Assembly (NCBI GenBank): GCA_041687095.1
Contig: JAWLCQ010000100.1
Coordinates: 1-16,613 of the forward strand
Reading direction: 5' to 3'
DNA: 16,613 nucleotides
Source of the DNA: Phycisphaerae bacterium
GTDB taxonomy: Bacteria; Planctomycetota; Phycisphaerae; SM23-33
Position numbers and translations under genes: made by a program. The notes below the pieces were generated by a model, which saw nothing but the letters and a program-made list of their open reading frames with translations, was not told where the DNA came from and did not search any database. This document shows, piece after piece, positions 1 through 16,613 of the stretch (position 1 is the first letter of the stretch; each line of letters opens with the position of its first letter).

Positions 1-91
1 GTGGTAAGCCGGCTTCCTCACTACGGGATCACCAACGGGCGCGGACGATGCGCGGTCCCTGCGCGCTGGCCGTAGTCGGGAGCCGTTTGAA

Positions 92-193
92 CCACCGACG
101 CGGGGTCGGTGGGGAAAAGACGAAGAGGCAAGAGAACCATGGGGCCTGTGAGTAGTCAATAGCCGCCTTCCACCGACGCGGGGTCGGTGGGGA
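92..193. repeat. Two copies of a 24-nt palindromic unit ccaccgacgcggggtcggtgggga (92-115 and 170-193, period 78 bp). Each folds as an 8-bp stem CCACCGAC/GTCGGTGG with a 5-nt loop. REP-like or terminator-like hairpins; a CRISPR remnant is not excluded.
   Basis: The 24-mer is identical at both sites and the inverted-repeat core was verified by reverse-complementing the sequence. The flanks differ between copies. The same CGAC...GTCG core recurs in hairpins at 15424 and elsewhere. Confidence 0.5.
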
Positions 194-571
194 GGTCCGG
201 GCGGCGGGCGTCTCTCCCATGTCCCCGACCGCACTGCGGGGACAGTCTCCAATCTCCACTTGGAGCGGCCACCTCAATGGGAGATTGGAAAAGCGCAATT
301 GGTAACCGCTCACGTCTTTGCATGCGACGACAGCAGCCTGAACAACGGCCGGAGAGAAGGGGATTACACAGATTTCTGGATTACACCGAAGAGAGAGAAG
401 AGCGGTGTTCTTCTCCTCAATCTGTGCAATCTCATCTTCTGCGTAATCCCTTTCTTCGGGGCTGTTTCTTCTGCCCAGGCCTTTCCGCTTTCGGCGGACC
501 TTCGGCGGATTTGCGAAGGCATGAACGGTTATGGCAATTGGAAGTGATTCGCGGGCAGAGCCGGCGCAACC

Positions 572-1558
572 CTACACGCGCTCGGAGTCCGCCTCGGGGT
601 CGGGCTCGACGTGGACGATGACCTGCGAGACCTCGGGGACCTTCTCCTGCACGCGGTCGCGGACGGCCGTCGCGATGTCATGGCCGGCGGCGACGCTGAG
701 TTGGGGGTCGACCTGGACGTGGATGTCCATCTCGACGCGGCCGCCGCTCTGGCGGGCGCGGACCGCGTGGTAGCCGCGCACCCCCCGGGTATCGACGACG
801 GCGCGTTCGATGCTCTCGATGACGTCGCGCCCGGGGGCGCGGTCGACGAGTTCGGCGGCGGCGGCGTGCATGATGCCGATGGCGACGATGACAAGGAACG
901 CCCCGAGGACGACGGCGGTGACGGAGTCGAGGAATGCCCAGCGGGGGCCCCCGAACTCGACGGCCGCCAGGCCGATGGCGGCGGCGACGGAGGTGACGGC
1001 GTCGGAGCGGTGGTGCCACGCGTTCGCCCGCAGGGAGACGTTGCCCGTTCGCTGGCCCACGTAGCGGGTGATGCGGAACAGGACCTCCTTCACCGGGACC
1101 GACAGCAGCGCCAGGGCGAAGGGCAGCCCGGCGGCGATGGGCGCGGTGGGCTGCTGCAGGGCGTGGACGGCGTCGTAGATGATCCACCCCGCCGCCGCCA
1201 GCAGGACCAGGCCCACGAACATCGACGTGAGCGTTTCGAGCCTGCGGTGCCCGTAGGGGTGGCAGGCGTCGGGGGGTTTGCGGGCGGCCTGGAGGCCGGC
1301 GAGGACGGCGACGTCGGTGACCAGGTCGGACCCCGAGTGCAGCCCGTCGGCGAGGATGGCACGGGAGTGCAGGAGGCTCCCGGCCAACACCTTCGCCACC
1401 GCCAGGGCCGCATTGGCCCCCAGACCAATCCAGGTCACCCCCTCCGCCGTCACGCGTGCGGGCCACGTTGTGCGCTCAGTGGTCATGCGGGAGGATTCTA
1501 TCCGTCGGCCGTGCCCCGCGACACCGGGAATTCCGACTTCGGGCCGGGTGCGGATCAT
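572..1558 (-). CDS. Cation diffusion facilitator (CDF) family divalent-metal efflux transporter (CzcD/FieF-like), about 328 aa.
   Basis: TM-rich N-terminus carries the CDF signature ...LHSRAILADGLHSGSDLVTD... A cytoplasmic C-terminal domain follows (...GYHAVRARQSGGRVEMDIHVQVDP...). I chose the start at ATG 1558 because it overlaps the upstream ORF's TGA in an ATGA junction. ATG 1486 and an upstream ATG at 1621 are alternatives. Confidence 0.85.
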   Translation of the reverse strand: MIRTRPEVGIPGVAGHGRRIESSRMTTERTTWPARVTAEGVTWIGLGANAALAVAKVLAGSLLHSRAILADGLHSGSDLVTDVAVLAGLQAARKPPDACHPYGHRRLETLTSMFVGLVLLAAAGWIIYDAVHALQQPTAPIAAGLPFALALLSVPVKEVLFRITRYVGQRTGNVSLRANAWHHRSDAVTSVAAAIGLAAVEFGGPRWAFLDSVTAVVLGAFLVIVAIGIMHAAAAELVDRAPGRDVIESIERAVVDTRGVRGYHAVRARQSGGRVEMDIHVQVDPQLSVAAGHDIATAVRDRVQEKVPEVSQVIVHVEPDPEADSERV

Positions 1559-1926
1559 GTGTCGGCGTAGGGGGAGGAGGGACGCATGACGTAGCGCGCG
1601 CCGTCCTGGCGGGCGGACCATTTGACCTCGTCGTCATACCCGCCCCGCGACGCCTCCCCCCGCCACTCCGTCTTCACGTGCCCGTGGTGATGGTAGACGT
1701 TGCAGGCGTTGCACTTGACGGTCTCGTCCAGGTGAGCCCCCTCGTACCGTCCCAGCCGCTCCCGTAGCATACGGAGTTGCTGGACGACCTCCGCCACCTC
1801 CGCCCCGGCCGCCTCGGAGGCATCCGCCTCTCCGGTGCGGCGATAGCGCATGCTGCCGAACGTCTGGATGGCATCGTCCAGGGCACGAAGGCACATGTCG
1901 TAGCACATGGCAAATCTCCCGTTCAT
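1555..1926 (-). CDS. Small hypothetical Cys/His-rich protein (about 123 aa) with a CxxxC...CxxC pair and an HHHGH run. Putative metal-binding partner of the CDF exporter.
   Basis: Protein-like composition, unlike the Arg/Pro/Gly-rich shadow ORFs around it. Motifs are MCYDMC and CNACNVYHHHGH. Its stop overlaps the CDF start in ATGA (1555-1558). The ORF-track start is TTG 1932; the first ATG is at 1926. Confidence 0.5.
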   Translation of the reverse strand: MNGRFAMCYDMCLRALDDAIQTFGSMRYRRTGEADASEAAGAEVAEVVQQLRMLRERLGRYEGAHLDETVKCNACNVYHHHGHVKTEWRGEASRGGYDDEVKWSARQDGARYVMRPSSPYADT

Positions 1927-1991
1927 CTGCAAGGCCAGGGAAAGGGGACGGGCTGCACCGTCGTCCGGCGGGGCTGCCCTCGAAACCGGGT

Positions 1992-3314
1992 TTATGTCTG
2001 CTTTCCGCGCAGCCGCCGCATGATGGCCATGTACTGCCGTTTACGGGCAGCGAAGGCGGCGTCGTGGTACAGGTCGCCGAACAGGTCGTACAGGCCCCGG
2101 CGGAGCTGCTCGCGCGTCATGCCGCGCGGCTCGTAGGTCACGTCGAACAGCGTGCAGCGGTCCCAGAACGGAGGCGGATCCAGGCGGCCCTCGCGTTGCA
2201 GGCGGGCGTACAGCGGCGTGCCCGGAAAGGGCGTCAGGACCGTCACCTGGATCTCCAGCGGCTCGGCGGCGGCGACGAAACGGCGGATGTCGTCGAAGAC
2301 TTCGGGGGTGTCCCCGTCGAGTCCGACGATGAAGCACGTGTTCACCGTCACGCCCGTGTCCTGGATGCGGCGGACGGCGTCGACGTACCGATCCGCCTGC
2401 CGCGCCTTCCATCCCGTGGACTCCACCCGCTCCAGCCGTTCGCACGACAGGCTCTCCAAGCCGATAAGCAACTGGTAGCACCCGCTCGCCCGCAGGTCGC
2501 GCAGCAACTCGGGCTGATCGGCGACGGAGAGGTCGGTCTCGGCGAACCAGCGGAGGCCCAGCGGGCCGATCCGCTCGATGAACTCGCGCGACCAGCGGGG
2601 ATCGACGAAGAGGTTGTCGTCGGCGAACTCGATAAAGGGCCTCTCCCAGATCTCGCACACCGCATCGAGTTCGCGGTGGACCTGATCCACGGTCTTCTGG
2701 CGGTAGCCCGGCCCGTACAGCCGCGAGCCCGCGCAGAACTCGCAGCAGTGCGGGCACCCGCGCGAGGTCTGCACGGGGATGCGGTTGTAGTTCTCCGGAT
2801 CCAGGAGGTCGAATCGCGGAACGGGCGCGGTCCGCAGGTCGTACGGCTCGCCTCCCTGGCATCCGTAGGTCCGCTGGAGCGTCCCGCGGGCGAGGTCGGT
2901 CATCACGCGGGGCCAGTGGGGTTCCGCTTCCCCGAGGACGACGGCGTCGGCGTGCTGGAGGGCCTCCGCGGGAAGGGCCGTCACGTGCGGCCCGCCCAGG
3001 ATCACCCGCGTGCCCTGGCGGCGGAGGTGGTCGGCGAGGGCGTAGGCCTCGTGGATCTGAGCGGAGTAGGAGGAGATGGCGGCGACGTCGTAGGGGGGGA
3101 GGCGGCGGAGGTTGAGATCGTCGATGTGGGGGATCTCGGCGTAGTCGAGTTCGACGCCGGGGGGCGTGAGGGCGGCGAGGGTGAGGAGCGAGAGGCTCGG
3201 CAGGGAGGCGATGACGTGCCCGCGGGCGAGGAAGCCCGGCAGGGTCACACCCAGCCACGCCAGTTCCGGGTCGATCACCCGCACCCCGCTCATCGCCAGC
3301 AGCCCCAGGTGCAC
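1992..3314 (-). CDS. B12-binding-domain radical SAM enzyme (class B radical SAM), 440 aa.
   Basis: CxxxCxxC cluster in ...TSRGCPHCCEFCAGS.... The N-terminal region is a Rossmann-like B12-binding domain (RVILGGPHVTALPAEAL...). The length is typical of the family. Confidence 0.85.
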   Translation of the reverse strand: MHLGLLAMSGVRVIDPELAWLGVTLPGFLARGHVIASLPSLSLLTLAALTPPGVELDYAEIPHIDDLNLRRLPPYDVAAISSYSAQIHEAYALADHLRRQGTRVILGGPHVTALPAEALQHADAVVLGEAEPHWPRVMTDLARGTLQRTYGCQGGEPYDLRTAPVPRFDLLDPENYNRIPVQTSRGCPHCCEFCAGSRLYGPGYRQKTVDQVHRELDAVCEIWERPFIEFADDNLFVDPRWSREFIERIGPLGLRWFAETDLSVADQPELLRDLRASGCYQLLIGLESLSCERLERVESTGWKARQADRYVDAVRRIQDTGVTVNTCFIVGLDGDTPEVFDDIRRFVAAAEPLEIQVTVLTPFPGTPLYARLQREGRLDPPPFWDRCTLFDVTYEPRGMTREQLRRGLYDLFGDLYHDAAFAARKRQYMAIMRRLRGKQT

Positions 3315-3317
3315 GGT

Positions 3318-3725
3318 TCACCCTCCCCGCGACAGCAGAAGGATCCAGCCCCACACCTGGATCGCCACGCCGAGCGTGACGCAGGAGGCGGGAATTGGAA
3401 ACAGGTACTTGCACGGTTCCCGCCACGCGGAGAGCAGGCACACAAGGGGCATGAGAAGAGCCCCGGCGATCATGGCCAGGCCCCCGACGGGGAGAGCCCA
3501 CGGCGGAAGGAGGCCCAGTCGCGGACCGCACACGCCGTACAGCACATTGATGATCCCCAAGGCGAAGGCCGCCACGTGACCGAGGCGCATCGCCTGCCGA
3601 CGGAAGCTGCCGTATCCGCCCGCCCAGTGGCGGTCGGCGGCCCAGAGCCCGAAGGTCATCCCCAGCAGGGCCCCCAATCCCATCCCGCACCAGCCGACGG
3701 CAATGTTCCACGATGCGACGTTCAT
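3318..3725 (-). CDS. Small integral membrane protein (about 4 predicted TM helices, 135 aa), function unknown. Immediately upstream of and probably co-transcribed with the radical SAM gene.
   Basis: Hydrophobic helices rich in G/A/L/W. Its stop at 3318-3320 lies 3 nt from the radical SAM ATG at 3314. Confidence 0.55.
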   Translation of the reverse strand: MNVASWNIAVGWCGMGLGALLGMTFGLWAADRHWAGGYGSFRRQAMRLGHVAAFALGIINVLYGVCGPRLGLLPPWALPVGGLAMIAGALLMPLVCLLSAWREPCKYLFPIPASCVTLGVAIQVWGWILLLSRGG

Positions 3726-3897
3726 GCTCCCGCCTTTCCCGTTCGTCTGGTCGGAGTCTACCGCGCTGTCCGCCCCGTGGGAAGGGGACGCGGGGCGCTG
3801 CGTACCCAGATCGATTTCCAGTCGCCAAAGTCCAATGGAGCTGACGCCCTGACGAGGTCCCGTTGCCCCGCGGATCCTGCGGTGCGTGCGGGACGAC

Positions 3898-3964
3898 GGA
3901 CGCCAAATGGCAAGCCACGGTCAGATCCTGTTCGCGGTCTTCCCCGGGCTTGCCATTTGGCGTC
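3898..3964. promoter_or_regulatory. Perfect 19-bp inverted repeat ggacgccaaatggcaagcc / ggcttgccatttggcgtcc with arms 29 bp apart, in the divergent intergenic region between the 4-TM gene and hicB. Candidate operator, terminator or small RNA hairpin.
   Basis: Reverse-complement identity of the two arms was checked by eye. It lies in the 360-bp non-coding gap between divergently transcribed genes. Confidence 0.4.
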
Positions 3965-4086
3965 CGTCCGTCCCCCGCGAACCCGCAGCAGATGCGCGGA
4001 ACATGATGCGCGCGGAACGTTGTCTCCATCACCGCCTGGTGGTTAGACTGATCCGTAGGATTTACCGCTGAGCGTGGAGGTGCACT

Positions 4087-4287
4087 TTGAAGCAACTGCA
4101 GCAGAACATGACGATGATCTACTGGAAGGGCGAGACGCACTGGGTAGGCAAACTGCTGGAGCACCCCGAGATCATGACCCAGGGCGAAACGCTGGGGGAA
4201 CTCGAGGAGAACCTCCGAGACGCCTACCGCATGATGGTCCTTGAGGATGTGCCCGAAGACCACCACACGAAGGCCATCGCGATATGA
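4087..4287 (+). CDS. hicB: Short HicB-family (UPF0150/RNase-H-like fold) antitoxin, 66 aa.
   Basis: ...IYWKGETHWVGKLLEHPEIMTQGETLGELEENLRDAYRMMVLED... matches the short HicB pattern (hhhh-dg-W-a-v-elPg-v-tqG-TleEa-eNl-eA). TTG start at 4087 lies 6 nt after a GGAGG at 4076-4080. Internal ATGs at 4108 and 4114 are alternatives. Confidence 0.6.
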   Translation: MKQLQQNMTMIYWKGETHWVGKLLEHPEIMTQGETLGELEENLRDAYRMMVLEDVPEDHHTKAIAI

Positions 4288-4465
4288 AGCGAAAGAGTTC
4301 GTCCACCGCCTCTCCCGGGACGGTTGCGTGCTCCTTCGCTCCGGGGGCAGACATGACATCTACCTCCATCCCAAGACGGGGCGGAAGCAACCGGTTCCCC
4401 GGCACGTGGAGATCGACGACGCCCTTGCACGACACATCCGCAAGTTCCTGGGCCTGGAACCGTAG
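4241..4465 (+). CDS. hicA: HicA-family mRNA-interferase toxin (YcfA-like). The canonical ATG (4284) is out of frame. The body is readable only from TTG 4241 or ATG 4247 inside hicB. Possible frameshifted pseudogene or start-shifted gene.
   Basis: Body ...KEFVHRLSRDGCVLLRSGGRHDIYLHPKTGRKQPVPRHVEIDDALARHIRKFLGL matches the HicA consensus (GSH...HP...vPrH...lkqlgl). The hicB TGA overlaps ATG 4284 in ATGA. A 1-nt indel in the A-run around 4292-4294 separates that ATG from the HicA frame. Confidence 0.55.
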   Translation: MRMCPKTTTRRPSRYEAKEFVHRLSRDGCVLLRSGGRHDIYLHPKTGRKQPVPRHVEIDDALARHIRKFLGLEP

Positions 4466-4487
4466 CAAAGATTTCTTCCGAATCCAC

Positions 4488-4516
4488 TTGCCTTTTCGCC
4501 AAAGCGCGCAATACTA
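4488..4516 (+). promoter_or_regulatory. Weak sigma70-like promoter candidate TTGCCT-N17-ATACTA in an AT-richer stretch about 215 bp upstream of pspA1.
   Basis: Hexamer spacing is 17 nt. This is a local AT-rich island in a 70% GC background. Motif-level guess only. Confidence 0.2.
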
Positions 4517-4621
4517 CAATTAGATACGCATGCTTCTGATGCGCTCCGGTCCGCTCGTGGGGGCGGAACTGCCGGGGCGCTTCGGGCGATGAGAAGGGCC
4601 GCGACGGTCGAAGTTTCTCCC

Positions 4622-4657
4622 GCTGATAGCTGATAGCTAACGGCGGATGGCTGAGAG
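4622..4657 (+). repeat. Array of 7-bp units GCTGATA GCTGATA GCTAACG GCGGATG GCTGAGA upstream of pspA1.
   Basis: Period-7 repetition read directly from the sequence. The same unit recurs in direct and inverted arrays at 5677-5778. Confidence 0.6.
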
Positions 4658-4731
4658 CTTCCTCCCTCCCGCCCTTCGTCGCCGGTGATCTCCGCCCCAG
4701 GGCGGGGAGCCTAGCAGAGAGGAGCACTGTC

Positions 4732-5460
4732 ATGGGGCTGTTTGCACGTCTACACCGCATCACTGTGGGCCGCGTCGAGGCCTTCCTTGCGCGCGCCGAG
4801 GACCCCGAGATCATCTTCCCCCAACTCGTCCGCGAGATGGAGGACCAGTTGCGCCTCGCGACCGACGCCGAGGCCAAGGCCGCCGCGGCCGTCAAGGCCG
4901 CCCAGCGCGACCTCCGCACCGCCGCCGAGAGCGGGCAGCGCATGCACCGCGGGGCCGCCCTCGCCCTCCAGCAGGGCGACGAGGCCACCGCCCGCAAGGC
5001 CCTCGCCGCCCAAATCGACGCCGAACGCTCCGCCGCCCAGGCCCACGACGCCGTCGGCGGCGCCGAGGCCACCCGACTCCAGGCGGAAGGGGCGCGGCAG
5101 CAGATCCAGCGCCAACTGGAGGAGCTGCGCTCCAAGCGCAACGAGATCCTCACCCGCTCCCGCGTCGCCCAGACCCGCCAGAAGATCCAGCGGACCGTCG
5201 GGGGCTCGGCCGGGACGACCGACACCATCCTCGACGCCGTCGCCCGCCTGGAGGCCGGGGTCGAGGAGGTCGAGGCCGAACTGGAGATCCAGTCCCGCCT
5301 CACGGGCGGACCGGCGACGGGCCCGTCGCTGGAGGCCAGGCTCTCGGAACTCGAGGGCCAGGCCCAGATCGAATCCCGCCTCGCCGAGTTGCGGCGGAGC
5401 GTGGAAGGCGAGGGCGACAGCGCGCCCGCGGTGGCGGAAGCGGCATCCGAAACCCAGTGA
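4732..5460 (+). CDS. pspA: PspA/IM30/Vipp1 family protein (phage-shock protein A-like, ESCRT-III superfamily), 242 aa. Paralog 1.
   Basis: N-terminus MGLFARLHRITVGRVEAFLARAEDPE...LVREMEDQL matches the PspA family N-terminal helix (E. coli PspA [27 protein letters not shown]...IQEMEDTL). Long coiled-coil body. GAGGAG RBS lies 7 nt upstream of the ATG. Confidence 0.9.
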   Translation: MGLFARLHRITVGRVEAFLARAEDPEIIFPQLVREMEDQLRLATDAEAKAAAAVKAAQRDLRTAAESGQRMHRGAALALQQGDEATARKALAAQIDAERSAAQAHDAVGGAEATRLQAEGARQQIQRQLEELRSKRNEILTRSRVAQTRQKIQRTVGGSAGTTDTILDAVARLEAGVEEVEAELEIQSRLTGGPATGPSLEARLSELEGQAQIESRLAELRRSVEGEGDSAPAVAEAASETQ

Positions 5461-5488
5461 TCTTCCTGCGTCCCGCGCGTCCACAACG

Positions 5489-5509
5489 CCCCCGGACTGC
5501 GTCCGGGGG
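5489..5509 (+). terminator. GC-clamp hairpin CCCCCGGAC-tgc-GTCCGGGGG (9-bp perfect stem) 28 nt after the pspA1 stop. Probable intrinsic terminator. A similar hairpin lies at about 5571-5592.
   Basis: Perfect inverted repeat followed by a tgtcgtgg tract. Position is immediately 3' of the CDS. Confidence 0.45.
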
Positions 5510-5676
5510 GTGTCGTGGCCAGCCACGGTCCTGGGAATAGGGGGACCGGGCGCTTCGGTGACGGAGCGCACCCCCCTGATGCAGTCCGGGGGGCGTTGGG
5601 CGCCGGGGCGCGTTACAACCCGTGCGGAAACAACATGAACGGTCCAGCAGCCACGAGAGCAGAGTTGAAGCCTTTG

Positions 5677-5778
5677 GCTATCAGCTATCAGCTGTCAGCT
5701 AACAGCTTTCAGCAGACTTGTCTGGATTCTCCTCGCTCCTCGCTGATCGCTGATCGCTGATCGCTGAAAGCCGATAGC
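5677..5778. repeat. Large imperfect palindrome built from heptamer arrays. (TCAGCTN)x5 at 5677-5716 and (GCTGATC)x3-5 at 5742-5778 face each other across a 25-bp centre.
   Basis: Units were read directly. The left array is the reverse complement of the right array and of the 4622-4657 array. Confidence 0.6.
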
Positions 5779-5996
5779 TTGTCGGATCGCTGTTCAGGTT
5801 GTTCCTGCGGAGCGCCTGACCCGGATCTGTCCGGGGACGCCGAAACGTCTCCTGGTGGGTCTGGAGTCGGAGACATTTGAGACTGCTGACTTGATTCTGA
5901 ACCATCCGTCCCGTATGGGAATATCGTACGGCGGCGGCCAGGCACCGGCTGAAGGGCCCCCCGTGGGCGAGGCGGCCGGTGGGAAAGGGCGGAAGC

Positions 5997-6668
5997 ATGT
6001 CCATCTTTGAACGCATTCAACGCATCGCCAAGGCCAACGTGAACTGGCTGCTCGACCGGGTCGAGCCGCCCGAGCAGGAACTCGAGTCCCGCATCCGTGA
6101 GCTGGAACAGGCCCTTCGGGAGGGCCGCGAGTGCGCCGCCACCTACGGGGCCACCTTCCGCCGCATGGAACGCGAGCAGGAGCAGCTCCGCCTGCAGCAG
6201 GCCCAGTGGCAGCAGCGGGCGCAGCAGGCGGTGGCGGGCGGGGACGACGACACCGCCCGCCGCGCCCTGGGCGAGAAGGTCCGCCTGGGCGAGCGCGTGG
6301 CCAACCTCACCCCCGGGATCGAGCAGGGCCGCCGAACGTACGACCAACTCCGCGACAACCTCGCCAAGCTCCAGGACCAGCTCCGCGGGGCGAAGCTCAA
6401 GCTCGAGGAACTCCGCTCCCGCCGCCGCACCGCCGAAGCCCAGAAGGCCTTCGGGCAGCACCTCGACGGGGCGCTGGGCGCCGCGGACGGGGCCGCCTTC
6501 GAACGCCTCGAGGACACCGTCCTTCAGACCGAGGCCGAGGTCGAAGTCGCCGACGAGATCCGCGGAACCGCCCTGCTGGACGCGGACCTGGAGCAACGCT
6601 CGCGCGACCTGCAGGTCGACGCCGAACTCCGCGCCCTCAAGGCCGAGTTCGACGGGGACGAACGCTGA
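5997..6668 (+). CDS. PspA/IM30/Vipp1 family protein, paralog 2 (about 223 aa). A different subfamily from paralogs 1 and 3.
   Basis: MSIFERIQRIAKANVNWLLDRVEPPE... is the PspA N-terminal amphipathic helix motif, followed by a coiled-coil body. The ATG is at ORF-track 5979+18. The in-frame GTG at 5979 is a less likely start. Confidence 0.85.
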   Translation: MSIFERIQRIAKANVNWLLDRVEPPEQELESRIRELEQALREGRECAATYGATFRRMEREQEQLRLQQAQWQQRAQQAVAGGDDDTARRALGEKVRLGERVANLTPGIEQGRRTYDQLRDNLAKLQDQLRGAKLKLEELRSRRRTAEAQKAFGQHLDGALGAADGAAFERLEDTVLQTEAEVEVADEIRGTALLDADLEQRSRDLQVDAELRALKAEFDGDER

Positions 6669-6681
6669 AAGGACTCGTGCC

Positions 6682-7362
6682 ATGTGGGACGTCATCACCG
6701 CCGCTTTCCTGCCCGTGAACCTGGTGTTCACCGTGCTGCTGCTCGCGATGGTGCTGTATTGGCTCGCGGTCATCCTCGGGGCGCTGGACACGGAGTTCCT
6801 CAACGTGGACCTCCATGGCGGGGCGGACGCGGGGGCTGACCTCGACGTCCACGCCGACGTCGACCTGGACGGGGACGCCGACGCGGGCTTCGCCCACACG
6901 TGGATGGGGCACATGCTGGCGTTCTTCTACGTCGGGGAAATCCCCGTCATGATCCTCGTCAGCATCCTCATCCTGAGCATGTGGACGATCTCCGTGATCG
7001 CCAACCACTACCTCAACCCGACGGGCTCGCTGCTGCTCTGGACGCCGATCGTCGCGGCCAACCTGCTGGCGAGCCTGCTGGTGCTCAAGGTGGTGGGGCG
7101 CCCCTTCCAGCGGGTCTTCGCGGCGCTGAACACCGACGCCAACGCCCCCCGCCCCGTCATCGGGCGGATCGGGATCGTGCTCACCACGCAGGTGTCCGAA
7201 CGGATCGGACAGGTGGAGGTGCCCGAGCGGGGCGCCCCGCTGCTGCTCAACGCAATCACCGAGGATGGCCGCGTCCTGCGTAAGGGGGATGAGGCCGTAG
7301 TGGTCCGCAGGGACAACGAGCGGGGCGTGTACATCGTCGCCCCCGTAGAACTGGAGACATGA
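6682..7362 (+). CDS. yqiJ: NfeD-like membrane protein (YqiJ/YuaF-type flotillin partner), 226 aa. N-terminal TM helices, an acidic Asp/His-rich loop and a C-terminal NfeD OB-fold beta-barrel.
   Basis: C-terminal ...GRIGIVLTTQVSERIGQVEVPERGAPLLLNAITEDGRVLRKGDEAVVVRRDNERGVYIVAPVE fits the NfeD short-form beta-barrel pattern. It starts 13 bp after the pspA2 stop. Its stop overlaps the flotillin ATG in ATGA (7359-7362). Confidence 0.7.
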   Translation: MWDVITAAFLPVNLVFTVLLLAMVLYWLAVILGALDTEFLNVDLHGGADAGADLDVHADVDLDGDADAGFAHTWMGHMLAFFYVGEIPVMILVSILILSMWTISVIANHYLNPTGSLLLWTPIVAANLLASLLVLKVVGRPFQRVFAALNTDANAPRPVIGRIGIVLTTQVSERIGQVEVPERGAPLLLNAITEDGRVLRKGDEAVVVRRDNERGVYIVAPVELET

Positions 7363-9425
7363 ACATGATTCTGGCAGCCTTAGCATCGGACGCAATCCTC
7401 TTCGCCTTCGCCCTCGGGGCGGTCATCGTCATCGGCGTCCTGGCGCTGATCGTCAAGTGTTACCGCAAGGTCTCCCAGGGCGAGGCCCTCATCCGCAACG
7501 GGCTGGGGGGGACCAAGGTGAGCTTCTCGGGCATGGTCGTCATCCCCGTCCTGCACAAGGCCGAGTACATGGACATCTCGGTCAAGCGGATCGAGATCGA
7601 CCGCCGCGCCATCCAGGGCCTCATCTGCAAGGACAACCTCCGCGCCGACATCGTCGTCGCCTTCTTCGTGCGGGTGAACAAGACCGTCGACGACGTCATC
7701 AAGGTCGCCCAGTCCCTCGGCTGCGCGCGGGCGAGCGACTCCAAGGCCCTCGTCGAACTCTTCGACGCCAAGTTCTCCGAGGCCCTCAAGACCGTCGGGA
7801 AGCAGTTCGACTTCGCCGAGCTGTACATCAACCGCGTCCGCTTCCGCGAGCAGATCCTCGACATCATCGGGACCGATCTGTCGGGCTACGCCCTCGAGGA
7901 CGCCGCCATCGACTACCTCGAACAGACCGACAAGAAGCTCCTCAATCCCGACAACATCCTCGACGCCGAGGGCATCAAGAAGATCACCGTCCTGACGGCC
8001 GAGCAGTTCGAACTCGCCAACGCCCGCGAGCGTGAGAAGGACAAGACGATCAAGAAGCAGGACGTCGAGGCCGGGGAGGCCATCCTCGAACTGCAGCGCC
8101 AATACGCCGAGGCCGAGGCCAAGCAGAAGCGCGAGATCGCCGAGGTCCAGGCCCGCGAGGAGTCCTCCGCCCACCAGGTGCAGGCCCAGGAGCGTCAAAA
8201 GGCCGAGAAGGCCCGCATCGCCGCCGACGAGGACATCGCCGTCGCCGAGGAGAACCGCCTCCGCCAGATCATCGTCGCCGCCAAGAACAAGGAACGCACC
8301 GAGGCCGTCGAGATCGAACGCGTCGAACGCGAACGCGGCCTGGAGGCGACCGAGCGCGAGCGCCTCGTCTCCCTCGCCCAGCTCGCCAAGGACAAGGCCG
8401 TCGAGTCCGAGCGCAAGGAACTGCAGGACGTCGTCCGCACCCGCGTCGAGGTCGAACGCGGTGTCGCCGTCGAGGAGGAACGCATCAAGGACACCCGCGA
8501 GTTCGCCTCCGCCGACCGCTCCAAGCGCGTCCAGATCACCAAGGCCGAAGAGGAAGCCGAGCAGGCCCTCGTCAAGGACATCAAGCAGGCCGAGGCCGCC
8601 CGCAAGGCCGCCGAGCACTACGCCCAGCAGCAGCTCATCGACGCCCAGGCCCACCTGGAGGCGTCCGAGAAGAACGCCGACGCCAAGAAGGCCCTCGCCG
8701 CCGCCGGGGTCAAGGAATCCGCCGTCGAAGGCATCGCCGAGGCGGAGGTCCTCGAGGCCAAGGCCCGCGCCTTCCGCGCCCAAGGCCAGGTCGAGGCCGA
8801 CATCCTCGCCCTCAAGGCCGACGCCAAGGAGAAGGACGGGACCGCCGAGGCCACCGTCGCCCAACGCAAGTACGCCGCGGAGGCCGAGGGCATCACCGCC
8901 AAGGCCGAAGCGATGAAGCTCTTCAACGACGCGGGCAAGGACCACGAGGAGTTCAAGCTCCGCCTCCAGAAGGACCTCGAAGTCGAACTCGCCGAGATCC
9001 GCATCCGCAAGGACGTCGCCGCCGAACAGGCCAAGCTCGTGGGCGAGGCCCTCAAGAGCGCCAAGATCGACATCGTCGGGGGCGAGAACCGCTTCTTCGA
9101 GCGGCTCGTCAACTCCATCACCACCGGAAAGATGGTCGACCGCGCGGTCCAGAACAGCGAGGTCCTGCAGGACTTCCGCGCGGCGATCGTGGGGGCGGAC
9201 GGGCAGGAGACGATGACCCGCATCCGCGAGATGGTCGGGCGCTTCGGGCTCTCCAGCGAGGACGTCAAGAACCTCACGGTCTCAGCGCTGATGATGAAGC
9301 TCATCGGGCTCGCCCAGGACCAGGAGAAGGGCCTCCTCCGCAACCTCCTCGACGCCGCCCACGCCGCCGGGATCTCCAACCACCCCGTCGCGACGTACCT
9401 CGCCCCGGCGGTGGAGACCAAGTAG
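7359..9425 (+). CDS. yqiK: Flotillin-like SPFH/band-7 protein of the YqiK type, 688 aa, with an unusually long Glu/Ala/Lys/Arg-rich coiled-coil region.
   Basis: N-terminal TM segment then ...YRKVSQGEALIRNGLGGTKVSFSGMVVIPVLHKAEYMDISVKRIEIDR...DIVVAFFVRVNKTVDDVIKVAQSLG. This aligns closely with E. coli YqiK (LYRRASAEQAFVRTGLGGQKVVMSGGAIVMPIFHEII...VDVVVAFFVRVKPSVEGIATAAQTLG). It is translationally coupled to the upstream NfeD gene. Confidence 0.9.
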   Translation: MNMILAALASDAILFAFALGAVIVIGVLALIVKCYRKVSQGEALIRNGLGGTKVSFSGMVVIPVLHKAEYMDISVKRIEIDRRAIQGLICKDNLRADIVVAFFVRVNKTVDDVIKVAQSLGCARASDSKALVELFDAKFSEALKTVGKQFDFAELYINRVRFREQILDIIGTDLSGYALEDAAIDYLEQTDKKLLNPDNILDAEGIKKITVLTAEQFELANAREREKDKTIKKQDVEAGEAILELQRQYAEAEAKQKREIAEVQAREESSAHQVQAQERQKAEKARIAADEDIAVAEENRLRQIIVAAKNKERTEAVEIERVERERGLEATERERLVSLAQLAKDKAVESERKELQDVVRTRVEVERGVAVEEERIKDTREFASADRSKRVQITKAEEEAEQALVKDIKQAEAARKAAEHYAQQQLIDAQAHLEASEKNADAKKALAAAGVKESAVEGIAEAEVLEAKARAFRAQGQVEADILALKADAKEKDGTAEATVAQRKYAAEAEGITAKAEAMKLFNDAGKDHEEFKLRLQKDLEVELAEIRIRKDVAAEQAKLVGEALKSAKIDIVGGENRFFERLVNSITTGKMVDRAVQNSEVLQDFRAAIVGADGQETMTRIREMVGRFGLSSEDVKNLTVSALMMKLIGLAQDQEKGLLRNLLDAAHAAGISNHPVATYLAPAVETK

Positions 9426-9447
9426 CGGAGCCGTGACGGCGAAGAGG

Positions 9448-9637
9448 AAATCCGAAATCCGAAACACGAAGTCCGAAACAAATTCGAAACGGCAAATTCA
9501 AATGACAGAAACTAAGGAACACCCCAGCGGGCGCCCACAGGCTTGTACAGCGGGGTTCGCTTGCGAGCGTCCGTTTTGAACATTTGAGTTTCGTGCTTTG
9601 AATTTGTTTCGGATTTCGTGCTTCGGATTTCGGATTT
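9448..9637. repeat. AT-rich inverted-repeat element. 57-nt arms (9448-9504 and 9581-9637, about 47/57 identical as reverse complements) are each built from 8 heptamer units (AAATCCG / CGGATTT) and flank a 76-nt centre. Candidate MITE, structured RNA, RNase III processing site or regulator binding array. It ends 26 nt before the giant gene's ATG.
   Basis: Arms were aligned by hand after reverse-complementing. The period-7 internal structure was read directly. The AT content is strikingly higher than the 70% GC surroundings. Confidence 0.7.
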
Positions 9638-9662
9638 GGGAGCTGCAGAACCGAGGATCGGT

Positions 9663-12600
9663 ATGACTGAGCAGAAGGAACAACAGGCGTCCCCGCCTCC
9701 GCAGACACAGCTCGAAGGTGGGACGTACGAGATCATCCGCCGGCGACTGGCGGAGCGGGGGCAGGAGCTGCGCCAGCGGATCGAGCAGCTCAACGACGCC
9801 CGCAAGGACGTCTTCGGGACCATCGAGACCCAGCTCACCGCCAGCGAGTCAATCTCCACCGACAACAACTGCGTCCCGCGGGACATGGTGTCCGTGGGGC
9901 GCAGCTTCCTCTTCGGGTACAACGTCTTCATCGGCCTGCGGGCCCAGACCGTGCTGGAGGATGTCTTCGCCCAGTACGAATGGGCCGATGGCGCCTTCCG
10001 CCGCCAGGAGCTGACGCTCCTGCGCGGGGAGCGGTTCGAGACCGACTTCCGCAACCTCTACAAGTACTACCGCCACACCACCTTCGCGAAGTTCCACGAG
10101 GCGGGCCCGCACCTGTACCTCGTCTTCCGCACGGGCAAGGCCGTCACCGACGTCAAGACCTTCAAGTTCCTCCTCCGCGGGGAGGCCCTGGAGTACGTCG
10201 ACAACCGCAGCGACCACGAGTACGCCTTCCCCCCCCAGCAGGAGTTCGACTGGACGCGGGTGACGCACGACATGCAGCGCAGCGGCCGCTGCCCCCACGT
10301 CTCCATCGCCGACCGCGTCTTCGTCGAGACGATGGGCGGGGACCTGACGATCAAGATCGAGGACAACACCGAGAGCGGGGAGGGCATCTACTCCGAGCCC
10401 GTGGACAACCCCGACCAGACCCTCGACGACGCCGAGATGTACTACGCCCTCGTCGGGAACCTCATCGTCCTCAAGATCCGCCCCTACCAGGAGAAGGCCT
10501 GGCGGCACATCGTGTACAGCGAGAAGGCCCAGCAGGCCGTCCGCATCGACTCCATCGCCGACGCCTGCGTCCTGCTGCCCGACGGGCACGGGCTGATCTT
10601 CCCCCGAGGGTGCTACCTCCAGACGGGCGAGCTGAAGCTCTTCGAGATCGAGATCGAGGACATGGTCTTCGATCGCCGCATCGCCAGCCCCAACGGGGAG
10701 GACTACCTCTACCTCTTCTACAACCGCGACAGCGGCACGTACGTCCTGCTGGGCTACAACGTCATCGCCCAGCGCGTCGCCACCCCCATCGTCTGCAACG
10801 GGTACTCGCTCTTCGACGACGGGACGCTCCTGTACTTCCGCGCGGGCACGCAGCCCCAGAAGCACCACACGCTCCAGGTCTGGCAGACGCCCTTCCGCGG
10901 GCCCGACTTCCGCCAGGAGGTCCGCACCGACTCGCACCTCTACCGCATCGGCAACAAGGACATCGTCCGCTGCATGGCCGAGTGCCACGAACTGCTCGTC
11001 CTCCTGGGCAAGGAGGACACCTACGCCAACCTCTACGTCGACATCGCCCGCACCGCGCAGAACATCCTCGACGGGTACTTCTGGCTCAACAGCCCCGACA
11101 CCTTCCGCCTCGACGAACCCCTCCGCGCCCTGCAGGAGGCCGCCGCCGGGGCCATCGCCGAGTTCGAGAAGGTCACCCGCACCCAGCGCGACACCCGCCA
11201 GCGCATCGCCGCCGCCCGCGACCGCGTCCGCAAGGCCATCGCCTCCATCGACTACTACCACCTCGACGACATCGGCACCTTCGTCCGCCTCCTCGCCGAA
11301 CTCCGCGCCCTCCGCGGCGAGGTCATCGGCCTCAAGGACCTGCGGTACGCGGACCTGCCCCTCGTCGAGGCGCTGGAGGCCGAGGTCGCCCAGCACGCCG
11401 AGACGCTCTCCGCCCGCTGCGTCGAGTTCCTGCTGCAGCCCGAGGCGCTGGCGCCGTACGTCCAGCGGATCGAGGCCCACCAGGCGGCGATCCCCGAACT
11501 CGCCAAGGTCACCGACGCCAAGGCCCTCGCCGAGCAGCTCGCCGCCGCCACCGCGGAGCTGGAGATGCTCATCGAGATCGTCAGCAACCTCAAGATCGAC
11601 GACGCCACGCAGACGACGGCGATCATCGACGCCATCTCGCTCGTCCTCGCCCAGCTCAACAAGGCCAAAAGCGCCCTCAAGAACCGCACCTCCGCCCTCG
11701 CCGCCAGCGAAGGCGCCGCCGAGTACGCCTCCCAGACCCAGCTCATCGACCAGGCCGTCATCAACTACCTCGACGTCTGCGATGCCCCTGACCGCTGCGA
11801 CGAGTACCTCGGGAAGGTCATGGTCCAGCTCGAGACCCTCGAGTCCCGCTTCGCGGACTTCGACGACTTCGTCGTCCAACTCGCCCAGAAGCGCGAGGAG
11901 GTCTACGGGGCCTTCGAGTCCCGCAAGGCCCAGCTCGTCGAGGACCGCAACCGCCGCTGCTCCGCCCTCCTGTCCGCCGCCCAGCGCGTCCTCAAGGGCG
12001 TCCGCAACCGCGCCGCCGCCCTCGCCACCCTCAACGAGATCAACGCCTACTTCGCGTCCGACCTCATGATCGAACGCGTCCGCGAAACCGTCCGCCAACT
12101 CCGCGCCCTGGGCGACACCGTCAAGGCCGACGACATCGACTCGCAGCTCAAGAGCCTCCAGCAGGACTCCGCCCGCCAGCTCAAGGACCGCCAGGCCCTC
12201 TACGAGGACGGGGAGAGCGTCATCCGCTTCGGGCGCCACCGCTTCAGCGTCAACCACCAGAACCTCGAACTCACCACCGTCCTCCGCGACGGGGAGCTGT
12301 ACCTGCACCTCACGGGCACGGGGTTCTTCGAGCGGGTCACCGACCCCGACCTGCTCGCCACCCGCGACACGTGGGGCCTGGAGTGCGTGAGCGAGAGCCC
12401 CGCGGTCTACCGCTCCGAGTACCTCGCCTACCTCCTGCTCCGCGACGCGCAGGAGCGGGGCGAGGCGGCCGTCGAGGAACTCGCGGGGCTCGACGACGAC
12501 GCGCTGCTCCAGCGGGTGCAGGCGTTCATGGCCCCGCGGTACGCGGAGGGGTACGTCAAGGGCGTCCACGACGCCGACGCCGCCCTCCTCCTCCGCGCGC

Positions 12601-15044: not shown

Positions 15045-15087
15045 GTGGCACCGTGCCCCGACGCTTGCGTCTCAGGGAAGCAAGTGA

Positions 15088-15239
15088 CGTGGGTGCCACG
15101 GCTGCGCCGTTTGCAGCCGTGCTGGCGTGGGTGCCACGGCTGCGCCGTTTGCAGCCGTGCTGGCGTGGGTGCCACGGCTGCGCCGTTTGCAGCCGTGCTG
15201 GCGTGGGTGCCACGGCTGCGCCGTTTGCAGCCGTGCTGG
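15088..15239 (+). repeat. Four perfect tandem copies of a 38-bp unit cgtgggtgccacggctgcgccgtttgcagccgtgctgg. Each contains a 9-bp-stem hairpin (cacggctgc-gccgttt-gcagccgtg). A degenerate inverted copy and three 21-bp repeats (15269-15331) follow.
   Basis: Copies were compared base by base. 38 is not a multiple of 3 and there are no spacers, so this is neither a coding repeat nor a CRISPR array. Confidence 0.8.
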
Positions 15240-15423
15240 CGGGAAGGACACGGCTGCAGACAGCGCAGCCGTGGCACCCGCAGTAGAAGCCGTGGCACCC
15301 GCAGTAGAAGCCTGGGCGCCCGCAGTGGAAGGCTGGGTGCCGTGGTTTGCGGAGCGCAGCGGAGCAACCACGTCAAACCGACGTGGCAGCCCGAGCCAGG
15401 CGGTACCGTAGTGGCATGCAACG

Positions 15424-15445
15424 CCCCCCGACCGGGTCGGGGGGG
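15424..15445 (+). terminator. GC-clamp hairpin CCCCCCGAC-cgg-GTCGGGGGG (9-bp perfect stem) between the repeat region and pspA3. Same hairpin family as 5489-5509.
   Basis: Perfect inverted repeat read from the sequence. Confidence 0.4.
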
Positions 15446-15570
15446 TGAGCCTGGAGAAGACGAAGCTTCGCGTTCGCGGACAGCAGCGCGAAGTACCGAT
15501 ACGAACGGCAGATGTCAACCCTGTCCCCGGCCGCACGCTGTTTGCGGTCCGGGGGCATCAGGATCGCAGT

Positions 15571-16248
15571 ATGGGATTCATTGATAGACTCAAGCGAATC
15601 ACCCTCGGACGGGTGGAGGCGTTCCTGGCCGCCCAGGAGACCCCCGAAACCGTCCTGCCCCAACTCGTCGAGGAGCTGGCCGCCAAGGTCCGCCAATCCG
15701 CCGATGCCGAGGCCAAGGCCCTCACCGCCGTCAAGGCCGCCCAGCGCCGCTGCGATGAGGCCCGCGGGCGGTCCCAGCGGATGGGCCAGGGGGCCCACTT
15801 GGCGCTGCAGGCGGGGGACCCCGACCTCGCCCGCCGCGCCCTCGCCGCCCAACTCGACGCCGAACGCGAACTCGACGCCCACCTCCCCCCCCTCGCCGCC
15901 GCCGAGTCCGCCCTGGAGTCGGCGAGGGCGGCGAGGCGGCAGTTGGGCGAGACGCTCGAGCAGGTGAAGGCGCGGCGGGACGAGCTGATCGCCCGCGCCA
16001 AGGCCGCCCGCGCCCGCCAGACCGCCCCCCCCCAGCGTGGATCCATCCTCGACGCCGTCGCCCGCATGGAGGAGAAGGTCGGACACGCCGAGGCCCACGC
16101 CGACGCCCGCGACGAAGTCGCCCGCACACTGGGCCCCGACGTGGTCGAACGCGACCTCGAAGAACTCCGCCGCAACGCCGAAGTCGAACGCCGCCTCCAG
16201 GAACTCAAGGCCCGCCTCGGTGGGCAGGGGCAGGGGGAGCAGGCGTAG
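15571..16248 (+). CDS. PspA/IM30/Vipp1 family protein, paralog 3 (225 aa). Closely related to paralog 1.
   Basis: MGFIDRLKRITLGRVEAFLAAQETPETVLPQLVEELAAKV... parallels paralog 1 (MGLFARLHRITVGRVEAFLARAEDPEIIFPQLVREMEDQL). ATG 15571 was chosen over the ORF-track start 15445, whose N-terminal extension is not PspA-like. Confidence 0.85.
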   Translation: MGFIDRLKRITLGRVEAFLAAQETPETVLPQLVEELAAKVRQSADAEAKALTAVKAAQRRCDEARGRSQRMGQGAHLALQAGDPDLARRALAAQLDAERELDAHLPPLAAAESALESARAARRQLGETLEQVKARRDELIARAKAARARQTAPPQRGSILDAVARMEEKVGHAEAHADARDEVARTLGPDVVERDLEELRRNAEVERRLQELKARLGGQGQGEQA

Positions 16249-16306
16249 GGCCTCACCGGCGGATCGCAACGGACGCCAAAGGGCAAGCCACTGCTGACCC
16301 GTCCCG

Positions 16307-16446
16307 CGCGCCTGCGCCAGCGCGTCTGCGGCGGCGCGTCTGCGGCGGCGCGTCTGCGGCGGCGCGTTTGCGGCGGCGCGTTTGCGGCGGCGCGTCTGCG
16401 GCGGCGCGTTTGCGGCGGCGCATCTGCGGCAAGGCGTCTGCTGCGG
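16307..16446. repeat. About 9-10 tandem copies of a 14-bp unit cgcg(t/c)ttgcggcgg immediately 3' of pspA3. A GGGGGTC-tccc-GACCCCC hairpin follows at 16445-16462.
   Basis: Units were counted directly (16321-16432 are near-perfect, with degenerate copies at both ends). 14 is not a multiple of 3. Confidence 0.8.
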
Positions 16447-16613
16447 GGGTCTCCCGACCCCCCACCTCCTGCGCCGGGGGTCTCCTGACCTCGTTGTTCT
16501 ACACATCTCGGCCTCGCGGGGCGGCAGGGACCCGATTCCGGGCGTCGGTCCGACAGCCCCGACAGGGGCGCGGGACAGTAGCCGGGGGTGGAGCGCAGCG
16601 GAACCCCCGGAAG

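Follow-up and report, generated by a model that had tools for sequence, protein, structure and literature searches.

Heptamer arrays at a psp locus of a Phycisphaerae bacterium as probable copies of a dispersed palindromic repeat

Heptanucleotides are reported to be the most abundant class of long simple repeats in bacteria (Mrazek, 2007, as summarized in PMC4679880). The closest described case to the arrays considered here is that of the TAACTGA direct repeats of marine Beggiatoaceae, some cyanobacteria and Bacteroidetes, which occur in 2–6 copies, nearly all intergenic and in forward orientation, a few bases 5′ of start codons, and whose function is unknown (MacGregor, 2015; PMC4679880). Heptamer repeats near starts and promoters have also been reported in Nostoc (bioRxiv 10.1101/2022.06.06.494920). 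Here we describe arrays of a GCTGA-containing heptamer that lie around two psp genes, pspA1 and pspA2, in a Phycisphaerae bacterium (contig JAWLCQ010000100.1 of assembly GCA_041687095.1, positions 1 to 16,613; hereafter the window, which is a complete 16.6-kb contig of high G+C content). The assignment of these arrays to a generic dispersed element, as opposed to a psp operator, is well supported. We further consider it probable, with appreciable room for doubt, that the arrays are dispersed copies of a palindromic heptamer-array repeat with no specificity for psp, one pair of arrays acting as an RNA stem-loop at this locus. In the open-access literature we found descriptions of heptamer direct repeats alone and none of paired, polar heptamer arrays built on a code of five fixed and two variable bases, and a survey of DNA structural features makes no mention of them. 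The repeat class appears to be widespread and under-described, and its paired, polar form is a new variant within the heptanucleotide repeats.

The first-pass annotation of this DNA had noted three arrays, at 4622–4657, 5677–5716 (inverted) and 5742–5778, and all three are there, as seen both in the sequence itself and with Tandem Repeats Finder (period 7 at 4622–4638, 5677–5713 and 5740–5767). Array A (4622–4657, plus strand) is a solitary GCTGA-type half element of two perfect and three degenerate heptamers (GCTGATA, GCTGATA, GCTAACG, GCGGATG and GCTGAGA, then GCT) that reads GCTGA on the coding strand, 75 nt 5′ of the pspA1 ATG (4732). It has no TCAGC partner upstream, and its region folds without unusual structure (z −0.28). 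Array B (5677–5716, minus strand), the left, TCAGC-reading arm of a complete palindromic element, begins 217 nt 3′ of the pspA1 stop codon and consists of five heptamers, on the minus strand GCTGAAA, GCTGTTA, GCTGACA, GCTGATA and GCTGATA. A spacer or loop (5717–5741), with the short repeat CTCCTCG present twice at its right end, leads to array C (5742–5778, plus strand), the right, GCTGA-reading arm, which has four perfect cores and one degenerate unit (three copies of GCTGATC, then GCTGAAA and GCCGATA) and ends 219 nt 5′ of the pspA2 ATG (5997). B plus C is one complete canonical copy of the element, and A is a solitary half.

Several analyses agree on the extent and nature of the arrays. A core-based caller places four perfect minus-strand cores over five units at 5681–5713 in B and four of four plus-strand cores at 5742–5767 in C, with a gap of 28 nt between the outermost perfect cores of the two. 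When at most two mismatches are allowed, GCTGATNGCTGAT has 12 matches in the window, every one of them in A, B or C; 1.05 ± 0.98 would be expected, and 12 was not reached in any of 200 shuffled sequences. A scan blind to repeat family counted five period-7 arrays in the window in all, each of them intergenic; apart from multiples of three, 7 was the sole enriched period, periods 4, 5, 8, 10, 11 and 13 being at chance level. The heptamer period of the unit first proposed, GCTGATN, holds, although the conserved unit is not GCTGAT plus one free base but a 5-base core, GCTGA, with two variable bases. The remark that heptamer periodicity is unusual holds among transcription-factor sites and fails among bacterial simple repeats (PMC4679880). 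Each of A, B and C comprises at least three head-to-tail 7-base units, beyond chance, as is the case for heptanucleotide simple sequence repeats, with a longest perfect run of three identical units. B and C together have the features of the GCTGA element found elsewhere, namely 3–6 units per arm at exact 7-base spacing and a TCAGC arm in the 5′ position within 100 nt of its partner. The pair is intergenic, as elsewhere, although its distances to the pspA1 stop (217 nt) and the pspA2 start (219 nt) compare with medians of ~9 and ~33 nt for other copies.

The same element recurs far from psp genes. Scans for GCTGATN ×3 in viral contigs and for GCTGANN ×4 in metagenome contigs each matched at least 120 loci, and the counts given here for the family are among the matches listed, 240 viral and metagenome loci that span 1.74 Mb. 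These loci contain 495 arrays of at least three cores, compared with none in shuffled sequences, and the spacings are 7 and 14 only. At most 240 of the 495 are accounted for by how the loci were found, and GCTGATN ×3, with its 18 specified bases, would be expected by chance at about 1 per 7×10^10 positions. Loci retrieved via GGATTTC ×3 (267 kb) contain another six GCTGA arrays, which indicates that the two families co-occur, as they do in the window; there are none in 203 kb of psp-orthologue and Haloferax loci. The family is present in other phyla and in phages. Among the carriers is a genuine tailed phage (L085), whose genes include those for portal, capsid, protease and terminase and which has 31 period-7 arrays in 14 kb. 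In chromosomal carriers, the arrays lie beside genes for valyl-tRNA synthetase (ValRS) and pantothenate kinase (CoaX), RecG, MacB/FtsX permeases and acyl-CoA carboxylases. A ValRS that is 92% identical to the protein of a named Terriglobales metagenome-assembled genome (MAG) identifies one of these loci (L205) as Terriglobales. No PspA homologue was found in 2.08 Mb of array-bearing loci. Array-dense contigs collapsed to one phage lineage, and no gene family is common to the independent ones. 

Two further observations concern the carriers. Terminase similarity was uninformative as to the host of L085, the best match being to Microcystis phage Mae-JY09 (50%), a phage annotated with tightly packed and frequently overlapping genes. 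Another locus (L180) has four tandem MacB/FtsX permease genes of ~800 amino acids each (1295–11428), with GCTGA palindromes in two successive permease spacers (3745–3819 and 6284–6358).

The element sits at gene boundaries, with a fixed arm order. Its canonical form is 5′-(NNTCAGC)~4, a variable spacer and (GCTGANN)~4-3′. Among neighboring arms at most 150 nt apart in the 240 loci, a TCAGC arm precedes a GCTGA arm in 103 pairs, the order is opposite in eight, and 12 pairs are same-sense. The TCAGC-then-GCTGA pairs are separated by a median of 17 nt (range −2 to 86 nt, within which the 28 nt of B/C falls), with no fixed phase, whereas the reverse-order pairs have a median gap of 112 nt, and six that were inspected enclose 17 to ~140 nt, mostly small-ORF-like (ORF, open reading frame). 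Arm size has its mode at four units, and the 4+4 form makes up 33 of 93 elements. None of the 93 is inside an ORF; 54 lie between co-directional, nine between convergent and five between divergent genes, and the median element begins 9 nt after the upstream stop codon. In phage L085, elements occupy whole stop-to-ATG spacers, the stop codon being followed by four TCAGC units, a short loop, four GCTGA units and, after a few bases, the ATG. Of 150 solitary arms, 39 read GCTGA at most 20 nt 5′ of a sense start, and 13 read TCAGC there. Within ORFs we found 49 arrays, all with TCAGC on the coding strand (sense GCTGA 0, antisense 49); since a regular GCTGA array of three or more units has TGA in all three frames, such arrays are absent from sense-strand ORFs. 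The polarity also led us to consider a Chi-like reading, in which the arrays point into genes. We set this aside, since known Chi sites occur singly, lie mostly within genes and are aligned with the direction of replication.

What is conserved in the element? The core is kept while the 2-base spacers drift. Within the core, C2 and A5 hardly ever change and positions 1, 3 and 4 accept transitions, symmetrically across the arms, and degenerate units are equally common in both arms. In 112 of 164 GCTGA arrays (chance 1/3) the two columns with the most variation are neighbors, compared with 82 of 181 arrays of other families, and a general "5+2" rule across heptamer families was rejected because it is clear in the GCTGA family alone. 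The provision of stop codons, with TGA in all frames, was likewise rejected as the main constraint; the stop triplet is kept in 29 of 59 degenerate units, and the best-conserved base, C2, falls outside it.

Comparisons between relatives show how the element changes. In Terriglobales, a five-unit GCTGA arm abuts the coaX ATG (GCTGAACATG) in both L205 and L282/L284, whose flanks are 90–92% identical; 25 of 25 core bases in this arm are identical, compared with 3 of 8 spacer bases. The partner arm has three units in one lineage and one in the other, a second difference in unit number between relatives of this identity is 4–5 versus 3, and in a third Terriglobales relative (L283) the whole coaX element is absent. 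The arrays of L282 and L284, which are 99.5% identical, are the same. Further heptamer families with this architecture (TAGGGAG/CTCCCTA, AGGAGNT/CTCCT and GGATTTC) are present in the same genomes. In the ValRS-to-biotin-ligase spacer of Terriglobales, a heptamer palindrome of the form (TAGGGAG)n-loop-(CTCCCTA)n extends from the stop codon, and in a relative a different family, ATGAATG/CATCATT, is found at that position (L205 3586–3684; L282 8839–8918; L283 8900–9035). The presence of different families at the same ValRS spacer in relatives indicates that families turn over and the architecture persists.

Phages L085 and L049, which are 72–86% identical in DNA sequence, differ by clean gains and losses at elements. 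An entire palindrome is present in the L085 gene for a Mu-F-like head-morphogenesis protein as an in-frame insertion of 23 codons (69 nt; GGQQSAISGQLNARLNADKLKADSFVKE) that is absent from L049, and the sequence on either side is conserved between the two. An irregular 3-base spacer leaves the frame of this insertion without TGA. A second, shorter in-frame insertion near the N terminus adds 16 residues to the same protein; relative to L049, the in-frame GCTGA insertions of L085 lie at 6737–6800 and 7040–7110. No direct repeats flank either B/C or the L085 insertion. These clean differences argue that each element is acquired whole, through insertion or through its rapid generation in place, which also fits the swollen pspA1–pspA2 spacer of the window. 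Elements might arise by insertion or by local expansion followed by fold-back.

That spacer stands out when the locus is compared with its orthologues. Four syntenic psp loci (L001, L010, L012 and L013) share with the window the gene order pspA, pspA, a YqiJ-like gene, a gene for a protein of ~665–690 amino acids and a gene for a DUF3686/AAA giant ATPase. Their pspA1–pspA2 spacers are 20–100 bp, compared with 536 bp in the window, and none of the four loci contains a period-7 array. Since they are absent from all four, the arrays are lineage-specific additions and not a conserved part of psp control. The closest PspA relatives are 58–64% identical, with none above 64% for PspA1, and the named ones come from Phycisphaerae, Sedimentisphaerales or Anaerohalosphaeraceae MAGs. 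Conservation of the gene order across Phycisphaerae-like genomes points to a putative membrane-stress module with two unannotated partners.

If pspA1 is transcribed through B/C, the RNA would form an imperfect stem-loop, in which 5-bp helices are separated by 2×2 mismatches. A hairpin or cruciform at the pspA1/pspA2 boundary had been among the first suggestions for these arrays, and such a structure can form, since B/C folds better than shuffled sequences both as RNA (−54.1 versus −42.9 ± 3.5 kcal/mol; z −3.2) and as DNA (z −3.0). The palindrome is imperfect, with arms of 31 nt each (5683–5713 and 5749–5779) that are 81% complementary and have 35 nt between them. The stop-adjacent position after pspA1 is taken not by B/C but by a large palindrome without heptamer periodicity (5467–5612) that begins 7 nt after the stop codon. 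Each arm of this palindrome has its own GC-rich hairpin (CCCCCGGAC...GTCCGGGGG), and the surrounding 220 nt, palindrome included, fold at −128 kcal/mol (z −6.2). With this palindrome and B/C both present, the 536-bp spacer consists mostly of palindromic elements. The two structures would most likely end or stabilize the pspA1 message, and reduced read-through into pspA2 would uncouple the pspA1 and pspA2 paralogues, in the manner of the REP/BIME hairpins of enterobacterial operons, which have been proposed to stabilize upstream mRNA or attenuate read-through. The predicted folds are consistent with such a role for B/C as an RNA stem-loop.

A number of results weigh against this reading. A consensus scan of both strands of 4200–6100 found no intrinsic terminator (stem plus T run). 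Our tests of RNA covariation and wobble were negative or underpowered: the variable dinucleotides of opposite arms are complementary at 0.306, compared with 0.297 by chance (z 0.5); degenerate cores show no compensatory excess (0.156 versus 0.143); and there is no wobble-sparing bias on the sense strand, where 11 transitions keep pairing and 21 break it. These pairing results and the core profile do not favor selection for a fully paired stem. As many as 264 of the 495 arrays are solitary, with no partner within 150 nt, and the GCTGA arm 5′ of coaX was kept while its partner decayed to one unit. Moreover, what is seen of the source organism is one 16.6-kb contig, and gene calls in the fetched loci come from a crude heuristic based on ORFs and G+C content at third codon positions.

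Could the arrays instead be dedicated to psp control, as iteron-like sites or operators for a psp-specific regulator, or could A and B be inverted repeats through which a recombinase inverts pspA1? Both ideas were raised in the first-pass annotation, and the local layout alone favors them: each pspA gene has an array 5′ of it, and pspA1 is flanked by A and B in inverted orientation, with 23 nt of A matching the reverse complement of B at 91%, flanking bases included. However, when each spacer has its own element, a GCTGA arm will come before a gene and a TCAGC arm after it automatically. Orthologous Phycisphaerae loci with the same gene order lack arrays, which are plentiful beside unrelated genes (ValRS/CoaX, MacB, RecG and phage portal and capsid genes) in carrier loci without PspA, and an unrelated second heptamer pair occupies another spacer of the window. 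Among the window ORFs scanned with Pfam, none showed a recombinase, regulator, transposase or ribbon-helix-helix domain, and the large ORFs without a Pfam match had no NCBIfam match either; for a site-specific invertible segment, there is thus a 23-nt match and no recombinase domain found in the window. No sigma-70-like promoter was found in 4200–6100, and neither psp spacer matches a sigma-54-type promoter pattern. As unrelated soil bacteria and phages have the same arrays at their gene boundaries, the arrays are best seen as generic intergenic repeats and not as a dedicated psp switch. Control dedicated to psp, or inversion of pspA1, is largely refuted, and we regard it as very improbable. 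Less far-fetched, yet still improbable, is an origin as neutral simple-sequence repeats that are produced by polymerase slippage and survive between genes, the only places where they cause no harm, the hairpin being incidental. Heptanucleotide repeats are a known class, sporadic in bacteria (Mrazek, 2007, as summarized in PMC4679880), and neutrality would account for the differences in unit number between relatives that are 90–92% identical (3 versus 1; 4–5 versus 3), for whole elements that come and go, as in L283, and for the many unit sequences that share one architecture. TGA in all frames would alone account for the absence from sense-strand ORFs. Slippage copies whole units, however, whereas the spacer bases are heterogeneous and the cores uniform; arm length peaks sharply at four units and does not decay geometrically; the 103:8 arm order is unexplained by slippage; and local expansion does not account for the cleanly inserted 69 nt in a phage gene. 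A variant of this explanation, phase variation of psp, had also been put forward. It is not borne out by arrays that contain no more than three identical units, are the same in 99.5% identical Terriglobales assemblies and are absent from any psp promoter spacer or reading frame.

Another alternative, unlikely in our judgment though deserving of attention, is that a general protein or RNA-binding factor, not dedicated to psp, reads the GCTGA core at 7-base spacing. In this case, each arm alone would be a boundary signal, with GCTGA in the 5′ leader or upstream DNA and TCAGC after the stop. Conserved cores with varying and mostly adjacent spacer columns (112/164 arrays), position-specific constraint on C2 and A5 that is symmetric in both arms, unpaired spacer bases with no wobble signature, an arm size fixed at ~4 units and a strict arm order are all features that such a factor would explain, as are the threefold preponderance of GCTGA-reading over TCAGC-reading solitary arms near starts (39 versus 13 of 150) and the retention of the coaX arm without its partner. 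One precedent is the omega repressor of plasmid pSM19035, with its heptad operators. Another is provided by the TAACTGA heptamers adjoining start codons in Beggiatoaceae (PMC4679880). On the other hand, the distance between arms varies (−2 to 86 nt, no phase), which is difficult to reconcile with a single symmetric complex spanning both arms, and the TAGGGAG/CTCCCTA, GGATTTC and AGGAGNT families in the same genomes would each need their own factor. Pfam and NCBIfam revealed no candidate array-binding protein in the window, the independent array-dense contigs have no gene family in common, and the window arms, at 75 and 219 nt from start codons, do not adjoin them. A bolder and tentative proposal, which we would not expect to hold but take seriously, is that GCTGA arrays are a cross-phylum gene-boundary punctuation element that phages and hosts share, that has fixed polarity and can insert in frame, and that is read or mobilized by a sequence-specific factor, the psp copies being ordinary members. 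We continue to prefer the reading of the arrays as a dispersed palindromic repeat with B/C acting as an RNA stem-loop.

Comparison with described systems helps to place the element. Like long simple sequence repeats (LSSR) and the STRR heptamers, which are cyanobacterial tandem 7-base repeats, it has tandem 7-base units in several copies, is non-coding and has a sporadic distribution; that class also has many loci per genome, and all five window arrays are intergenic, as seen in 16.6 kb only. It differs in that five of seven bases are held constant, the arms are short (~4 units) and half of the arrays are in fixed-order inverted pairs. Its carriers, Planctomycetota-like and Acidobacteriota genomes and phages, are not among the groups listed for LSSR by Mrazek (2007), as far as the summary in PMC4679880 goes. 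The TAACTGA and GCTGA units both contain CTGA, and both give stop codons in all frames. However, the TAACTGA repeats are direct, with a fully fixed unit and one inverted set among 170 (PMC4679880), whereas inverted pairs are the rule for GCTGA and two positions are free; the window arrays, at 75–219 nt from start codons, are also unlike the start-adjacent TAACTGA repeats. REP/BIME extragenic palindromes (PMC3733652) resemble the element in being short, imperfect, high in copy number, located after stops between co-directional or convergent genes and often paired. In contrast to it, a REP is a single 20–40-bp palindrome with a GTAG/CGTC tag and a cognate RAYT transposase and lacks internal 7-base periodicity; the B/C arms have no such tag, and the window has no transposase domain or RAYT gene.

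Rickettsia palindromic elements (RPE) can insert in frame into protein-coding genes and be translated, and in-frame insertion is what the L085 element, with its 23 codons in the Mu-F-like protein, has in common with them. Unlike the GCTGA element, RPE are 100–150 bp long, conserved in sequence, without heptamer periodicity and known from Rickettsia only. The sites of the omega repressor are contiguous heptads in direct and inverted orientation. These heptads are WATCACW, at few promoters and with a cognate ribbon-helix-helix gene, whereas the window unit is GCTGANN, with no ribbon-helix-helix domain by Pfam and no sigma-70-like promoter in 4200–6100. SARP heptamers recur every 11 bp, and neither omega nor SARP sites are known as a genome-wide gene-boundary element. 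The hmw repeat tracts of Haemophilus influenzae are long, perfect and hypermutable; in contrast, the window arrays are short and interrupted, with at most three identical units, and GCTGA arrays are stable between near-identical strains (99.5% identical assemblies have identical arrays), which sets them apart from phase-variable contingency repeats. SARP sites are heptameric direct repeats (PMC5930380), and the hmw repeats are 7-base units in intergenic or 5′ untranslated sequence that affect expression (PMC12721329). As to miniature inverted-repeat transposable elements (MITE), GCTGA copies share cores only, have spacers that vary in length and sequence, and lack flanking direct repeats.

A second heptamer-array palindrome is present in the window, in the spacer between the genes for a 688-amino-acid protein and the DUF3686/AAA protein. 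Its left arm, array D (9447–9480, plus strand), has GAAATCC units, and its right arm, array E (9590–9641, plus strand), has GGATTTC units and one irregular GTGCTTC unit. Both were seen in the sequence, with Tandem Repeats Finder and in the period scan, and were called at 9441–9478 and 9607–9645 by the family-blind scan. The pair folds as a near-perfect hairpin of ~195 nt (9448–9641; RNA −104.8 versus −68.6 ± 4.4 kcal/mol in shuffles, z −8.2). A 29-nt segment of arm E that includes the irregular unit is identical in two viral-collection contigs, L159 and L142, which also contain the inverted partner of this arm. As these 29 bases are shared with other contigs, D/E may be a MITE candidate, and the GGATTTC family may be a conserved mobile element.

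The genes of the window, in order, are a cation-efflux gene (572–1621, minus strand), a 772-amino-acid ORF with no family match (2041–4359, minus strand), a HicA toxin gene (4241–4465; PF07927, E 3.6e-10), pspA1 (4732–5460; stop codon 5458–5460), pspA2 (5997–6668), a gene for a YqiJ-like membrane protein (6682–7362), the 688-amino-acid protein gene (7359–9425), the gene for the 1793-amino-acid DUF3686/AAA protein (9663–15044) and a 377-amino-acid ORF with no family match (15373–16506, minus strand). The HicA gene has no obvious HicB partner; since it overlaps the 5′ end of the listed 772-amino-acid ORF, the start of that ORF is probably further in. The spacer after the giant ATPase gene contains four perfect tandem copies of a 38-bp unit followed by three of a 21-bp unit (15088–15331). 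Each 38-bp unit contains a 9-bp hairpin (CACGGCTGC...GCAGCCGTG), and Rfam searches of the hairpins at 15202–15282 and elsewhere gave miRNA-like matches, all of them below threshold, and Rfam covariance models had no match in 4466–5996. A 14-bp unit (GCGCGTCTGCGGCG) is repeated ten times in tandem, with 88% matches, in the 5′ part of the 377-amino-acid ORF (16306–16446). Since 14 is not a multiple of three, either this ORF may have a wrongly called start or the repeat could lie in non-coding sequence.

For the psp locus the outcome is deflationary, in that there is no regulon or switch and, at most, an uncoupling of pspA1 and pspA2 through RNA structure. It also carries a caution for annotation, as such arrays mimic operators and give spurious ORFs. 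More broadly, one short element of strict architecture recurs at gene boundaries in Acidobacteriota, a Planctomycetota-like genome and phages. If the punctuation reading is true, it would represent a new REP- or RPE-like class of element built on a 5+2 heptamer code. Should the arrays be read by a factor or be mobile, they would offer a new handle on transcript punctuation and genome plasticity in poorly studied phyla of soil and sediment.

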